A stretch of DNA of 64,000 bases from Escherichia coli. GTDB taxonomy: Bacteria; Pseudomonadota; Gammaproteobacteria; Enterobacterales; Enterobacteriaceae. The stretch is from assembly GCF_048403405.1 (NCBI RefSeq), contig NZ_CP183129.1, one strand, 5' to 3'. The notes under the pieces were generated by a model. That model did no database searches, was not told the origin of the DNA, and was given only the letters and a program-made list of their open reading frames with translations. Positions 29,661-52,385 of the stretch are shown here, in pieces. The position numbers and the translations under genes were made by a program. How positions within the stretch are numbered: position 1 is the stretch's first letter; every line of letters begins with the position of its first letter.

Positions 29661-29931
29661 AATGTTACCGTAATATGTGAGTATCCATCGACTAGACACT
29701 AAGCAAAAAAGCTCCCGAAGGAGCCTTCATTTTCACTTTCTTAAATCTAACGACAGACGGCTAACATTTAAGTATTGTGAAATATTATCAAATGTAATCA
29801 TCATTGATTTACAAAAGATACATTTTGCCCCGAAAGGATTCCTGTCAGAAACATCAAAAGATGATGTTCTATACTGAGAACCATGGCAACACGGGCATCT
29901 AAAGTGAATATGGTTTGTAATATTTTCTACC

Positions 29932-30144
29932 TCAAAGTGCCACTACATGAACAGCCGCGGGGCCTTTAGGTCCGTTCTCAATACCAAATTCGACTTCCTG
30001 ATTCTCAGTTAACGTTTTGAAATCGTTGCTCTGAATAGCTGAGAAATGGACAAACACATCTTTGCTACCATCTTTCGGCGTGATGAAACCAAAACCTTTT
30101 TCAGGGTTAAACCATTTCACTAAACCAGTCATTTTGTTAGACAT
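29932..30144 (-). CDS. cspI: Cold-shock protein CspI
   Basis: [70 protein letters not shown] contains the CSD RNP1 and RNP2 motifs. Confidence 0.92.
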
Positions 30145-30508
30145 CATTATTACCTTTTGAAGAAGTTAGCCCTTGGGCAGAATGGTCCGAAAAAAAAATA
30201 TCAGAGAGAAAAACCAACAAGGAAATCTCAAGAGGTACAAATAATAAATTTATAACAATGACTGCTTCAGATAATTTTGTAACAAACCAGAACACCATTA
30301 ACGCATGATTAACCAACCATAGCAAGGATTACTTTTGTAAAGAAAAACACACGAATGAAACAATAGCTTTATTTATTAATAAAACGTGTCATTCTGTCTA
30401 ATGACCTTTTATCTTACCCTTAAGATTTCAAGGATTTTGACTCATGGAAGAGTCCTTTTTATTTAAATTTCACATTCAGCGCTAAAAATAATCCGATTTA
30501 ATATTAAT

Positions 30509-33100: not shown

Positions 33101-33381
33101 AATATTGTGGTACTTTTTGTGGGAGTCATCCACTTACGCACTTTGTTTTGCTATGCCAGCAGTTAGCTTCTGCTGTAAAACTATTCATGCAGCAAACCTG
33201 CACTTCACCACAATGGTTAGCATACTTTTCCTGATTAAGTTATTGCCAAATATGCTGGCCATTGTTTCATGTATTGGACCTCCTTACTATTTATTAAAGA
33301 GATCCAATATTCACCACTCTGTCTGTATCTCCACTCAGGCATCAGCCTTCTTCGTTATCGTATACAGACAAACTATGAATT

Positions 33382-33597
33382 TTAATCAGTAATTATGACA
33401 TTTGCTGCTGCAGGACCTTTAGCACCACTCTCTACAGAGAAGGTAACCTTTTGACCTTCAAATAAGGTTCGATAATTATCATTCTGAATCGCAGAAAAAT
33501 GCACAAACACATCTTTACTACCATCAACAGGAGAAATAAAGCCAAAACCTTTATCAGCGTTAAACCATTTTACTAAACCAGTCATTTTATTTGACAT
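33382..33597 (-). CDS. cspB: Cold-shock protein CspB
   Basis: [71 protein letters not shown]. Confidence 0.92.
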
Positions 33598-33896
33598 TCT
33601 ACATTCCTTAACTTGAGCCTTTCGGCATAAATGGCTTGTATAACAGAAACGACTTCGTACTTAATTGGAGAGACTCAAAGAAGGAATAAGTGAATAACAC
33701 CTGAAATGAGAACTGCTTTAGTAAACTACTTCGTATATCGTCTGTTCTTCAAACCGACGCAATCATTAACGCATAGTTGAACATATGAAGCAATGTTTAT
33801 TTTAGACATCCAGCCATCTTCAACCCCATCAAAAAACTATAGCTTTCTTCAGGAACGTGTGTATAGTGCGCCAAGTTATCAGTATTAAGGAATTTT

Positions 33897-40183: not shown

Positions 40184-41012
40184 GACGATGCCCTCCGCTG
40201 ATATTCAGGAGACGGTGAATATGAAAATTAGCCTTATCCGCCAGACGAATACGTTCAGCCTGCAAGTTAAGAAGGGTTTCTACCAAAACCTGATGCGCCT
40301 GCGGATCCGAAAGAGTTACCTTGCGCAGAGCACGTAGTGCAGTTGTTACATAACTGAGTTTATGTAAGTCTTCATCATTCAGACGAGTGAGGGCTGGGAC
40401 AGTAGCCATGATGGCAGCCTCCGATAACAGTGAATTACCTTCACCACCGGAAACGCCAATTTCGCTGGTGGTGAACTGAACGGGGTTGGCGTAACCGGCG
40501 TTATCGGAAACCGGCGCACCTTTCGGTGCCCCCGTCCAGCCCACCATAATTTGGGTGTGCACAGACGCAGACGATAAAAAAGACGCTGGCGCGTCATATA
40601 TCGCCGATAACATTTCCAGGACGCCAATCCCGTCACCCGCTTTATAAGGTGCCTGAACAGTGTAACGTCCCGGAATGGCAGAATCAATGTGCTGGTGGTC
40701 CTTCACACTCAACAAAATCACGCCTGAATTTCCACAAAGGACTAAAGCACTCATGCGGGTAGTCTTTGCGAAGATAGATAACGCGCTGTGTTTCTGGTTC
40801 CCAACGAATAACATGGACATAAAGCCCTCTTCCGTCACGAAACCAGCGGTTAAGTTCCCGCACAACTCGCCCCCCACAGTCAGGTAAAGTTCTCTGTGGT
40901 TACTTACAGCCAGGTAATTTGGTAATCTGCATTCATGCCGTAACAACAGGTGTTCAGCGACACTGACCACCAGCTGTTGCGACAAACGGTTATTTGCCGT
41001 TAAACTGTTCAT
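40176..41012 (-). CDS. Hypothetical protein (278 aa)
   Basis: The start overlaps the cII-like stop (ATGA). I recognise no family. Confidence 0.6.
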   Translation of the reverse strand: MNSLTANNRLSQQLVVSVAEHLLLRHECRLPNYLAVSNHRELYLTVGGELCGNLTAGFVTEEGFMSMLFVGNQKHSALSIFAKTTRMSALVLCGNSGVILLSVKDHQHIDSAIPGRYTVQAPYKAGDGIGVLEMLSAIYDAPASFLSSASVHTQIMVGWTGAPKGAPVSDNAGYANPVQFTTSEIGVSGGEGNSLLSEAAIMATVPALTRLNDEDLHKLSYVTTALRALRKVTLSDPQAHQVLVETLLNLQAERIRLADKANFHIHRLLNISGGHRHA

Positions 41013-41804: not shown

Positions 41805-41894
41805 ACAATATGTACCTCCGGTATACATATTACATGATTGAAATGAACCTTCAAGATACTTGTACCTTATCGGTACAAAGGTTTTAATTTCGTT
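41805..41894. promoter_or_regulatory. Divergent immunity control region (pR / pRM-like, two 19-bp operator-like palindromes)
   Basis: ATGTACCtccggTATACAT lies at 41810-41828 and TTGTACCttatcGGTACAA at 41860-41878. The minus strand has TTGAAG, 16 nt, TAATAT (41854-41827) reading towards cro. The cI ATG has almost no leader. Confidence 0.6.
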
Positions 41895-42569
41895 ATGAAA
41901 ACAATCCATGACATCCGGCGGTCTAACGCCAGAAAACTGAGAGATGGTGTTGGCGGAAATTCATCCTTTGCCACCATGATTGATCGCGAGCCAACCCAAA
42001 CCAGCAGGTTTATGGGGGATGGCGCTACTAAAAATATCGGTGACAGCATGGCACGGCACATCGAAAAATGTTTCGACCTGCCTGTCGGATGGCTTGATCA
42101 AGAACACCAGACAACGAACATCACAAAAAAACCTGATGTTTCAATCACTAACAAACAAATAACGTTAGTCCCTGTCATATCATGGGTACAGGCCGGAGCA
42201 TGGAAAGAAGTTGGCTATTCTGAGGTTGATTTGAGCACAGCAGAAACGTATCCCTGCCCTGTACCCTGTGGCGAAATGACTTATATCTTGCGGGTGATTG
42301 GTGATTCAATGATTGATGAGTACCGCCCTGGAGACATGATTTTTGTTGATCCCGAAGTCCCTGCCTGCCACGGTGACGACGTTATTGCATTGATGCACGA
42401 TACAGGCGAAACCACCTTCAAGCGATTGATAGAAGATGGAACACAGCGTTATCTCAAAGCATTAAACCCAAACTGGCCTGAGCCTTACATTAAGATTAAC
42501 GGTAATTGCTCTATAATTGGTACAGTGATTTTCTCGGGAAAACCAAGAAGATACACAATAAAGGCCTAA
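41895..42569 (+). CDS. cI: CI-type repressor (HTH + S24 LexA-like autopeptidase domain)
   Basis: 224 aa. It has an Ala-Gly cleavage-site context (VQAGAW), a catalytic Ser (VIGDSM) and a Lys (TFKRL). Confidence 0.88.
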   Translation: MKTIHDIRRSNARKLRDGVGGNSSFATMIDREPTQTSRFMGDGATKNIGDSMARHIEKCFDLPVGWLDQEHQTTNITKKPDVSITNKQITLVPVISWVQAGAWKEVGYSEVDLSTAETYPCPVPCGEMTYILRVIGDSMIDEYRPGDMIFVDPEVPACHGDDVIALMHDTGETTFKRLIEDGTQRYLKALNPNWPEPYIKINGNCSIIGTVIFSGKPRRYTIKA

Positions 42570-42581
42570 TCAATATTTATG

Positions 42582-42605
42582 AACCTGCTTCGGCAGGTTT
42601 TTTTA
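42582..42605 (+). terminator. Rho-independent terminator after cI
   Basis: AACCTGCttcgGCAGGTT followed by TTTTT. Confidence 0.8.
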
Positions 42606-42608
42606 TAC

Positions 42609-42637
42609 TTGACAATGTACCCATGAGATACATAATG
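42609..42637 (+). promoter_or_regulatory. pL-like early-left promoter with overlapping operator
   Basis: TTGACA, 17 nt, ATAATG. The spacer holds the 19-bp palindrome ATGTACCcatgaGATACAT (42615-42633), which shares its half-site with the cI/cro operators. Confidence 0.65.
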
Positions 42638-42639
42638 TA

Positions 42640-43054
42640 TCCAAAAGAAACATGAGGCAGGCAAGATTCAAACAAAATTTGGTTGTAACACGGCGTATGG
42701 CACATGCGTCGTTAGCGGTCTGGGGACGTTAAAGGGGACAATCCACTTCTTGCTCGGGCAAACAAACCAGGTAGTCGGAATGTGCAAGTCAATGATGATG
42801 CTGATAAGACGCCTAACCAGCGTGGCGATCCGGTTTGACGCCTGGGAAGAGACCAGGGTGCAACGATGAGGGCATTTATGGAGCCGCGACAAAGTGTGGT
42901 GCCGTAACTGGCTAAGTGCTCTCAGCGTTGTGGTAATCCGCGAAATGGCGCGGCGGTAAGTATGGCGGGGTTACTCTTTCCCCGTTGAGGACACCGGATT
43001 GTCAGGTTGACCATACGCCTGAGTGACAACCCCACCACAACAGCCACTGCTTTG
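42640..43054 (+). other. ORF-free, hairpin-rich leader of the early-left transcript (candidate cis-acting or non-coding RNA)
   Basis: There is no ORF of 60 aa or more with an RBS; only ORFs of 30 codons or fewer. Short GC stems occur at 42841-42857, 42938-42953 and 42966-42984. Confidence 0.4.
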
Positions 43055-43100
43055 GCGGTACCAGTTTGTACACTTGCTTCCGGCTGGTACCGCTCTTTTT
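43055..43100 (+). terminator. Strong rho-independent terminator inside the early-left leader
   Basis: A perfect 10-bp stem GCGGTACCAG...CTGGTACCGC is followed by TCTTTTT. Confidence 0.8.
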
Positions 43101-43189
43101 ACAAAACAGAGAAGAGCATCACCGGACGACAGGCTCATAACCCAATCCATCCGGGCGGCTGCCACCGCAGGTGTTCTTCTCTGTTTTGT
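43101..43189 (+). other. Long hairpin (15 perfect bp, extendable to ~20 bp) just upstream of the first early-left gene
   Basis: ACAAAACAGAGAAGA at 43101-43115 pairs with TCTTCTCTGTTTTGT at 43175-43189. An inner GCGGctgccaCCGC hairpin is also present. Confidence 0.6.
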
Positions 43190-43237
43190 GGAGAAACCAA
43201 CCGACCTTGCAGGGTCGATATGATGAGGAGCAGCAAA

Positions 43238-43600
43238 ATGGCTAGCGAACGCAGTACTGATGTGCAGGCATTTATCGGGGAGCTGGACGGCGGCGTATTT
43301 GAAACCAAAATCGGCGCAGTTCTCAGTGAAGTCGCTTCCGGTGTGATGAACACGAAAACCAAAGGTAAGGTCTCACTCAACCTGGAAATCGAACCATTTG
43401 ATGAGAACCGTGTGAAAATCAAACACAAACTCTCATATGTTCGCCCGACTAACCGCGGGAAAATTTCCGAAGAAGACACCACCGAAACGCCGATGTATGT
43501 CAATCGCGGTGGTCGCCTGACTATTCTGCAGGAAGACCAGGGACAATTACTGACTCTTGCCGGTGAACCTGACGGAAAACTACGCGCAGCAGGTCATTAA
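43238..43600 (+). CDS. YfdP-like protein
   Basis: The ATG at 43238 follows GAGGAG with a 7-nt spacer. The product is 120 aa, in the position and size of CPS-53 yfdP. The track ORF's 5' extension lacks coding support. Confidence 0.65.
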   Translation: MASERSTDVQAFIGELDGGVFETKIGAVLSEVASGVMNTKTKGKVSLNLEIEPFDENRVKIKHKLSYVRPTNRGKISEEDTTETPMYVNRGGRLTILQEDQGQLLTLAGEPDGKLRAAGH

Positions 43601-52064: not shown

Positions 52065-52150
52065 GCGAAGGTGGCGGAATTGGTAGACGCGCTAGCTTCA
52101 GGTGTTAGTGTCCTTACGGACGTGGGGGTTCAAGTCCCCCCCTCGCACCA
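52065..52150 (+). tRNA. leuQ: tRNA-Leu (anticodon CAG), copy 1
   Basis: GCGAAGGTGGCGGAATTGGTAGACGCGCTAGCTTCAGGTGTTAG...GGGGGTTCAAGTCCCCC...TCGCACCA has a long variable arm. It is 86 nt with a 7-C run. The name is assigned by position next to rsmC. Confidence 0.9.
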
Positions 52151-52178
52151 AAAACCACGTTGATATTGCTCGCACTGG

Positions 52179-52264
52179 GCGAAGGTGGCGGAATTGGTAG
52201 ACGCGCTAGCTTCAGGTGTTAGTGTTCTTACGGACGTGGGGGTTCAAGTCCCCCCCTCGCACCA
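52179..52264 (+). tRNA. leuP: tRNA-Leu (CAG), copy 2
   Basis: Same sequence as copy 1 except for a C-to-T change in the variable arm (GTGTTCTTAC). 86 nt with a 7-C run. Confidence 0.9.
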
Positions 52265-52298
52265 AACGAGGCGATATCAAAAAAAGTAAGATGACTGT

Positions 52299-52385
52299 GC
52301 GAAGGTGGCGGAATTGGTAGACGCGCTAGCTTCAGGTGTTAGTGTCCTTACGGACGTGGGGGTTCAAGTCCCCCCCCTCGCACCA
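52299..52385 (+). tRNA. leuV: tRNA-Leu (CAG), copy 3
   Basis: 87 nt with an 8-C run. It matches the remembered canonical tRNA-Leu1 sequence. Confidence 0.9.

Follow-up and report, generated by a model that had tools for sequence, protein, structure and literature searches.

A covariation-supported structured RNA in the mosaic early-left leader of an Escherichia coli prophage

In the phage lambda N-leader and the phage T7 early RNA, long hairpins that serve as RNase III sites punctuate the early transcript between functional units. The put RNAs bring about terminator read-through by binding the beta' zinc-binding domain of RNA polymerase, and the EAR element of B. subtilis is an RNA antiterminator situated inside operons. 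GOLLD and ROOL are complex pseudoknotted RNAs, borne by phages or prophages, that often adjoin tRNA genes. In the Qin prophage, DicF is cut from the polycistronic dicBp RNA, as a form of 190 nucleotides (nt) by RNase III and as a 53-nt form by RNase E (10.1101/2023.04.14.536235). Here we set beside these systems the leader of an early-left operon in a stretch of 64,000 nt of E. coli DNA (contig NZ_CP183129.1, assembly GCF_048403405.1; "the window", positions counted from its first letter). This leader (42640-43237) lies between the promoter pL and the gene yfdP of a lambdoid prophage with an e14/SfV-type immunity region. An earlier note, made from the letters of the sequence, had seen in it one candidate antitermination or regulatory RNA, perhaps analogous to HK022 put. 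With a probability of about one half, we favor instead a composite non-coding transcription unit running from pL to yfdP, which is not a put-like antiterminator and whose pL precursor would be divided by RNase III and a terminator into discrete RNAs.

We compared the leader with phages and E. coli genomes by BLAST and found that it splits into blocks with differing distributions, ending near 42662, 42933 and 43033. The block at ~42662-42933 is common to phage P1/P7 and the epsilon15-like Uetakeviruses, the block at ~42927-43050 is common to PPompW/Qin-like phages, and the block at ~43033-43240 travels together with yfdP in SfV, SfII, ST64B and others. Judged by these distributions, the leader is a mosaic of at least three RNA modules with separate evolutionary histories, so that the single RNA of the earlier note is not borne out. 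The first of these modules is laid out as follows.

42687-42935, plus strand: module 1, a structured RNA of ~250 nt with two pseudoknots
42687-42865, plus strand: the 5' core of this RNA, ~180 nt (136.9 bits, E 1e-43 with R1, our covariance model of the core)
42691-95 with 42707-11: helix P1, with the invariant loop UAUGGCACAUG
42700-05 with 42780-85: pseudoknot PK1, in which the P1 loop is complementary to an invariant AUGUGC downstream
42715-22 with 42768-75: P2, a long-range helix around a variable hairpin
~42790-42808: a second variable hairpin
42809-12 with 42820-23: helix P5, loop YUCACCA
42815-18 with 42832-35: pseudoknot PK2, in which the P5 loop pairs with GGUG
42841-45 with 42853-57: helix P6, loop GAAGAGA (the CCTGG/CCAGG stem of the earlier note)
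42859-42933, plus strand: the 3' domain of the element, in which P7 and P8 close a variable insert
42859-64 with 42927-32: helix P7, UGCAAC with GUUGUG
42868-74 with 42917-23: helix P8, GAGGGCA with UGCUCUC

To assemble the family we used an exact 19-mer, GGTAGNCGGAATGTGCAAG, from the most conserved part of the element; it occurs in at least 120 IMG/VR contigs, which give 108 unique sequences and 37 clusters at 90% identity. In two independent alignments standard pairs fill 96.3% and 97.7% of the cells, compared with 25-46% in controls where the pairing partners are slid. A check of leader homologues for covariation, which the earlier note had proposed, is thus positive. The alignments contain 15 and 12 pairs that are changed on both sides, and for most measures of covariation the observed values are matched by 0-1 of 500 shuffles. 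The count of extra pair types is not above the shuffles, which reach it 33 and 204 times in 500 for the two alignments. At the level of single helices, compensatory changes are found in four of the five pairs of P6, which makes the CCTGG/CCAGG stem (42841-57) a real helix; P8 has three pairs with double changes, and P7 varies on one side with its pairing kept. Two further stems listed in the earlier note, CCGCG/CGCGG and CGGGG/CCCCG, also stand up in that both form hairpins in the minimum-energy fold, inside a block that is ~90% identical to K-12 Qin.

The G-U pairs identify the plus strand as the folded one. No reading frame is shared across the structured-RNA family: in several homologues every one of the six frames is interrupted by stops, and the lengths of the homologues fall into all residue classes modulo 3. 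On this comparative evidence the 5' element is a covariation-supported structured RNA, encoded on the plus strand and conserved across divergent phages. A search of 42640-43237 against Rfam 15 returned no match on the plus strand up to E = 10, and the sole hit in the interval is a minus-strand match to CC0196 at noise level (11.8 bits, E 5-9).

Now we consider the part of the leader that follows the core, where the comparison with Qin applies. Its features, some of which overlap the 3' domain just described, are these.

~42860-43100, plus strand: module 2, homologous to the Qin region upstream of and including dicF
42930-43050, plus strand: module B (the "slot"); its homologue in Qin is the 5' part of the 190-nt DicF precursor
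43054-43100, plus strand: a DicF-type hairpin-terminator with a 10-bp stem (43055-43064/43084-43093), a 19-nt loop and the tail TCTTTTT
43101-43189, plus strand: module 3, a long hairpin of ~20 bp (arms 43101-43123/43170-43189) that abuts the U-tract of the terminator

P7/P8 and the GTTGTGG that ends the element are found in K-12 Qin as well, and window positions 42930-43050 are ~90% identical both to K-12 Qin (L263 958-1080) and to the PPompW/689R5 phages, where the homologues of 42927-43050 lie between ydfC and dicB. The window hairpin-terminator aligns with the DicF hairpin-terminator of Qin (TTTGGCGGTA.CAGTTT...CCGCYCTTTTTA), and in 689R5/PPompW the place aligned with it scores 76.7 bits with Rfam DicF. 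Immediately upstream of its hairpin-terminator ~18-19 nt are missing from the window, among them nt 1-13 of DicF (with the 5' seed UUUCUGGUGACG), and because of this deletion Rfam DicF (RF00039) finds no match in the window up to E = 10. By alignment, the window carries a seed-less relative of DicF, the homology being that of the scaffold. Counting 190 nt back from the annotated 3' end of Qin dicF leads to the 3' strand of P8 (L263 ~946). Since the 5' end of the 190-nt species maps there, by length and not by a mapped base, P7/P8 is a likely RNase III site.

Module B folds into a cloverleaf-like shape closed by GUGGU/ACCAC, and elsewhere the same slot is occupied by tRNA-Arg(UCU) (Uetakeviruses) or by a pseudogenic tRNA (EPEC E2348/69). 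We tried module B (42930-43038) as a tRNA and rejected it, as neither ARAGORN nor the Rfam tRNA model recognizes it; the hints of a tRNA origin amount to its position, equivalent to that of tRNA-Arg, and a T-arm-like CAGGUU..CCUG. Other traces of tRNAs surround the element in its relatives. The P8 inserts of loci L006, L102, L255 and L256 (SPN1S, F1055, Kp4866-6 and others) contain tRNA-like T-arm sequences, GGTTCGATTCC, and that of L102 also has an anticodon-like UAU loop; ARAGORN calls no tRNA at the inserts of L006 and L102, the two that the scan covered. At L096 1077-1203 (minus strand), ~370 nt downstream of a copy of the element with an alternative 3' domain, there is a 127-nt match to the tRNA model with no ARAGORN call, which may be a tRNA with an insertion. 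When window positions 42859-42933 are compared with the tRNA-Arg loci (L005 2739-2745), the first three acceptor-stem nt of tRNA-Arg turn out to be shared with the 3' strand of P7 (GUUGUG). P7 and the full acceptor stem are therefore mutually exclusive, and RNase P cleavage would shorten P7.

The terminator itself has an energy of -17.7 to -22.4 kcal/mol (z = -2.6); a simple pattern scan missed it because its loop is 19 nt long. In ST64B, F1055, Kp4866-6 and the Uetakevirus loci it is kept with compensatory changes in the stem, from GGCGGUACC/GGUACCGC to GUCGGCGUC/GACGCCGAC and to GGCGGUUAUCC/GGAUAACCGCC, with CUUUUUACA invariant. The terminator that the earlier note had placed at 43055-43100 is thus real, its 10-bp stem and U-tract being conserved by compensatory change. 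The segment has the sequence features of an intrinsic (Rho-independent) terminator, at which termination is predicted; for the homologous DicF terminator, in vivo termination is stated in the title of Faubladier 1990, cited in 10.1101/2023.04.14.536235. The hairpin of module 3 is likewise present in the minimum-energy fold and shows compensatory changes (G-C to A-U; G-U to G-C) in ST64B, F1055 and Kp4866-6. It is a candidate for a second RNase III-type site or for an element of the 5' untranslated region (UTR) of the yfdP mRNA.

How widely is the structured RNA distributed, and in what company? We find it in 1830 of 5426 complete E. coli genomes (34%), including 554 places on plasmids, and PGAP annotates nothing beneath it. 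The 64-kb window has exactly one copy by R1, and none in the pR operon. R1 has further matches in Kosakonia, Phytobacter, Superficieibacter and E. whittamii, and in Klebsiella phage Kp4866-6, mEp390, Tyrion, 65FD and EPEC E2348/69. In lambdoid phages a cI-type repressor gene and a promoter immediately precede the element, and this arrangement recurs with several immunity types and differing downstream genes. It is present in P1, P7, D6 and SJ46, and in P1-like plasmid prophages the core begins 12 nt past the annotated end of tRNA-Ile2; in P1 the core makes up the 5' UTR of ban, with the promoter under C1 control 2.3 kb away. In the Uetakeviruses the element is flanked by the terminase and portal genes, both encoded on the opposite strand, and in ~28 loci the tRNA-Arg(UCU) starts at the GTGG of the element's terminal GTTGTGG. 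There the unit reads element, tRNA and homologous terminator (at ~+400), the distance to the terminator being as in the window and the next gene being unrelated to yfdP. We had considered yfdP as part of a conserved cassette and rejected this, as the gene after the Uetakevirus copy is Phage_gp49_66, which is unrelated. From these contexts the 5' domain looks to be a mobile RNA module, one that moves along with tRNA genes and with those early operons of enterobacterial phages that are under repressor control.

Several individual loci deserve mention beside this survey. The copy in EPEC E2348/69 (L259 1137-1482; NZ_LT827011.1 2,796,037-2,796,382) belongs to a Uetakevirus-like prophage and has a "pseudogenic tRNA-Gly", so called by PGAP, in the slot. 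In the P1 ban operon (L004) a "dicF-like region" is annotated near the promoter (282-383) and the 5' core follows 2.3 kb downstream (2511-2696); these two kinds of module adjoin each other in the window. "Hypothetical protein" coding sequences lie over the element in Ayreon (L001), mEp390 (L258), cdtI and mEp460, and they are probably spurious, because the family has no conserved frame. The 19-mer GGTAGNCGGAATGTGCAAG also occurs, among the matches listed, in roughly a hundred Collinsella assemblies (L135-L233 and others), none of which matches R1. A scan for it in one genome per species was discarded, as the matches listed were mostly Collinsella contigs, none of which fits R1.

The surroundings of the leader are as follows.

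41895-42569, plus strand: ymfK, the gene of a LexA-like (Peptidase_S24) cI-type repressor
42581-42607, plus strand: the intrinsic terminator of ymfK, an 8-bp GC stem followed by a T-run
42609-42636, plus strand: promoter pL, TTGACA-16-CATAAT, with 11 of 12 consensus positions; the best site within 2.5 kb
42615-42634: operator copy ATGTACCCATGAGATACATA, within the promoter spacer
43200-43219, plus strand: a small hairpin, followed by the Shine-Dalgarno sequence GAGGAG (43225-30) and the yfdP ATG (43238)
from 43238, plus strand: yfdP, yfdQ (DUF2303) and yfdR
minus strand: a cro-like gene, a CII-like gene (Phage_CP76) and an Ash-family gene

The counterpart of the ymfK terminator carries a terminator annotation in SfV and Ayreon. 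The operator within pL is a repeat of ATGTACCTCCGGTATACATA at 41810-41829, in the cI/cro intergenic region. The promoter with embedded operator of the earlier note holds, its reading with a 17-nt spacer and ATAATG being the same site one base off, and from the position of the -10 element transcription is predicted to start at ~42643. The leader is also GC-richer than its flanks, as had been claimed (0.54-0.575 over 42700-43300 compared with 0.36-0.47), and the predicted 458-nt RNA has a fold z of -3.6 over the whole transcript. The early-left operon is ~3 kb long, and we saw no second strong terminator in it.

With regard to coding content, the description of the leader as free of open reading frames (ORFs) stands in so far as no ORF in it is conserved. 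Plus-strand ORFs in 42640-43237 have at most 39 amino acids, and a correction concerns one of 26 amino acids (42652-42732, MRQARFKQ...), which has a mildly basic N-terminus. The start of this ORF is outside the block common to other phages, where homology begins at ~42662, and the ORF is not conserved. The claim that no N/Nun-type gene is present agrees with our result that no conserved frame with an arginine-rich motif was found after pL. In strain YDC107, whose sequence is identical, the 669-bp gap between the repressor gene and yfdP carries no RefSeq/PGAP annotation at all.

Put together, the composite transcription unit would work in the following way. Loss of the repressor would let pL fire at ~42643, and the first product would be an untranslated RNA that begins with a compact domain of ~180 nt (42687-42865), double-pseudoknotted and conserved in structure. 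RNase III would cut the long irregular hairpin P7/P8 (42859-42933), as homology with Qin dicBF and the mapping by length suggest, and this cleavage would release the 5' pseudoknotted domain. The 3' piece, of ~170 nt, would be a seed-less homologue of the long (190-nt) DicF precursor and would end at the DicF-type terminator (43055-43100). Most transcripts would stop there, so that a primary RNA of ~460 nt would give rise to two stable pieces, an account close to the stand-alone RNA of ~460 nt that the earlier note had held as its fallback. The fraction that passes the terminator, which with its 19-nt loop and five U's is imperfect, would enter yfdP-yfdQ-yfdR, and the hairpin at 43101-43189 would part the non-coding portion from the mRNA. 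Read-through would be independent of the 5' domain, judging from relatives that keep the terminator without it. As for the domain itself, it most likely works as a separate RNA, expressed early, with a conserved host component as its binding partner; such binding is suggested by its near-invariant loops, its restriction to Enterobacteriaceae and its linkage with tRNA genes and early operons.

A number of points weigh against this account. PK1 never varies, and its support consists of the invariance of its complementary strands; PK2 has a single compensatory event (CACC/GGUG to AACC/GGUU), in one lineage. The invariance of the 19-mer is partly one of construction, since most members were collected with the exact 19-mer, and it is not merely an artefact of collection because members fetched by BLAST keep it too. 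The RNase III site is placed solely through the length of the Qin species. In several lambdoid loci a crude scan finds no terminator after the element, so a terminator of its own is not universal. Finally, the constant position right after pL, across immunities and downstream genes, is how cis-elements such as nutL and putL behave, and the P1 core, in the ban 5' UTR without a terminator, fits a role in cis as well as one in trans. These last points lead to a rival explanation, in line with the earlier note, in which the 5' RNA would be a cis-acting processive antiterminator, a functional analogue of put, carrying RNA polymerase through the DicF-type terminator and any Rho-dependent sites into the early-left operon. 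The element does fill the nutL/putL slot right behind pL in lambdoid phages that lack N, across no fewer than five immunity types, and a conserved terminator follows it both in the window and in Uetakeviruses. Near-invariance of the unpaired and pseudoknot nt in a family confined to Enterobacteriaceae is what binding to a host machine would be expected to produce, and an antiterminator acting inside operons, like EAR, would suit the position in P1. There is also a resemblance in sequence between the P1 hairpin with its junction, ACGGCG..CAUGCGUCG-UU-AGCG, and stem I with its junction in putL, ACGGCG..CAUGCGUCG-GG-AGCG, which we take as a lead only because half of the family has CGGCA/UGCCG instead. 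To compare the two families directly we built a covariance model of put (R2) from seven sequences, which are HK022 putL and putR and five more, including the HK639 site annotated as "putL-like antiterminator RNA". On its own training rows R2 gives 90-97 bits for HK022/HK639 putL and 47.5 bits for HK022 putR. In the leader (42640-43237) it yields nothing up to E = 10. Over the 10 kb around the leader R2 peaks at 7.3 bits (E 0.48; 40940-41009), a value exceeded nowhere in the window or in SfV, ST64B, F1055 and Kp4866-6, and no R2 hit falls in the pR operon. Conversely, R1 does not match HK022 or HK639 put, and as the covariance models fail to cross-match both ways we reject membership of the put family. 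The architectures differ as well, with ~70 nt and two stem-loops in put compared with ~250 nt and two pseudoknots here. The element is present in a single copy with none near pR, whereas put copies are expected after both pL and pR; this expectation may not be strict, since in the stretch of HK639 that we fetched the annotation shows a putL-like site alone. Copies beside tRNAs, in the P1 ban operon (there 2.3 kb from the promoter) and between the Uetakevirus terminase and portal genes are unlike put, and the shortness of this early-left operon, with no second strong terminator in it, also counts against the antiterminator. Further evidence against it comes from relatives that lack the core. 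SfV, F1055, ST64B and Qin are all without it, and in each of them the terminator still precedes the same genes or analogous ones. In SfV a deletion remnant joins the upstream flank to ..CGTTGTGG and in F1055 the upstream flank is joined straight to P7/P8; both were isolated as phages. R1 has no match in ST64B or Qin. In Qin, DicB is nevertheless produced on derepression from a gene downstream of the homologous terminator (10.1101/2023.04.14.536235). The core is thus probably not needed for passing the terminator, as far as these relatives can tell; the proposal that the leader is a put analogue is left without direct support, and we regard the antiterminator explanation as unlikely.

Three other explanations can be set against the composite unit. 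The core could be a stabilizer or insulator acting in cis without touching RNA polymerase, guarding a long RNA and its cargo (tRNA, small RNA or ban mRNA) from 5'-end-dependent decay or Rho loading, or guiding processing. This agrees with the element being always upstream of its cargo on the same strand (tRNA-Arg, ban) and at the 5' end of pL transcripts, with the extensive structure of the region, and with the overlap of P7 and the first three acceptor-stem nt of tRNA-Arg, which suggests an interplay with RNase P processing; we still find it doubtful, since two pseudoknots and near-invariant loops go beyond what a simple stabilizer needs and a cut by RNase III at P7/P8, if real, would part the domain from the cargo. 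Compactness, pseudoknots, high conservation, an aptamer-like size and a place upstream of a terminator would equally befit the aptamer of a riboswitch or attenuator that tunes the terminator at 43055-43100 through a ligand. That idea is very improbable given a variable spacer of ~190 nt between core and terminator, which in some phages includes a functional tRNA. We saw no conserved alternative pairing with a terminator arm, though the terminator stem varies freely in sequence; no terminator follows in P1 and several lambdoid loci, and the downstream genes are mutually unrelated. Lastly, the short hypothetical ORFs annotated in the records of Ayreon, cdtI, mEp460 and mEp390, together with the basic N-terminus of the 26-amino-acid ORF at 42652, might be read as signs that the region encodes, or once encoded, a small protein such as an N-like factor or a decayed gene. 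We give this next to no credence: stops fall in all six frames of several homologues, indels are not multiples of three, helix substitutions are compensatory, PGAP calls nothing, the 26-amino-acid ORF begins outside the conserved block, and orf33, which SfV has in place of the core, is acidic and finds nothing in Pfam.

The leader of ST64B, used above as a relative without the core, merits a description of its own. Between its cI-like and yfdP-like genes ST64B (L254, here 228-700) has an ORF-free leader of 816 nt, in which P7/P8, a slot resembling STnc100 and the terminator are all present; the initial ~250 nt of this leader are unrelated sequence, possibly another RNA module. We also tried it as a divergent full homologue and discarded this, since the 3' domain alone aligns and the 5' part does not. 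The window contains other RNAs too. At 40464-40652 (minus strand), in the Ash-family ORF region of the pR operon, matches to Rfam C4 antisense RNA (82.8 bits) and isrK (55.4 bits) adjoin each other; the pair is also in SfV and constitutes a P1/P4-type RNA module inside a lambdoid immunity region. Elsewhere in the window (29886-30292 and 33319-33758 on the minus strand; 52065-52382 on the plus strand) there are two matches to the cspA thermoregulator (112 and 157 bits) and three to the tRNA model.

We return to the described systems to ask what is new here. DicF, its processing and STnc100/PasD are already known, and the 5' core looks like an RNA family that is apparently undescribed. We found no description of it in Rfam 15, RefSeq annotation or the full-text literature (searched by sequence string, yfdP, P1 ban operon and phage non-coding RNA catalogues), a result compatible with its presence in some bulk computational listing; within one supplementary file of the Pas small-RNA preprint the motif is absent. 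If so, a pseudoknotted RNA of ~250 nt has apparently been overlooked although phage P1 and one in three complete E. coli genomes carry it, and the "hypothetical protein" calls in several phage records are probably to be corrected as spurious. We see an outside chance that the core represents a novel class of phage RNA whose partner is a core host machine and whose spread among P1-like, epsilon15-like and lambdoid phages goes together with tRNA genes. In the most striking form of this idea it would be a second, larger kind of processive antiterminator that works without protein, either a distant relative of put stem I or convergent with it.

Compared with STnc100/PasD (RF02076), which does not cover the 5' core, the leader is separate: we tested the window for membership and rejected it, with no match at E up to 10, and none of 14 other element-bearing loci has STnc100 at the gathering threshold (47 bits). 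Segments of SfV, ST64B and Qin-like loci that begin at ..GTTGTGG or sit just after DicF score 35-39.5 bits, below this threshold, and they fill the same slot, which has the P7/P8 hairpin on one side and the terminator or downstream gene on the other. GOLLD and ROOL have no Rfam match in the window, and the element differs from them in being much smaller, in belonging to Enterobacteriaceae and not to Firmicutes or environmental taxa, and in lying within early operons. With the put sites of HK022 and HK639 it has in common a position just downstream of pL in N-less lambdoid phages, a pronounced structure, terminators that follow and a restriction to enterobacteria. In the manner of the RNase III sites of lambda and T7, P7/P8 and the hairpin at 43101-43189 are candidates for cleavage, which is inferred from Qin only, and the units that they would separate are non-coding.

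It is Qin dicBF that the leader resembles most plainly in plan, both being untranslated stretches in a repressor-controlled prophage operon of the early-left type. Qin has no 5' double-pseudoknot core and leads into dicB where the leader here runs into yfdP; this leader, in turn, lacks the DicF seed and a few bases upstream of it and differs in the hairpin interior. Seen side by side, the N-less lambdoid early-left leaders are strings of exchangeable modules (a 5' core, an RNase III hairpin, a slot for a tRNA or small RNA and a DicF-type terminator), and the DicF locus is recast as one variant of this wider modular system.

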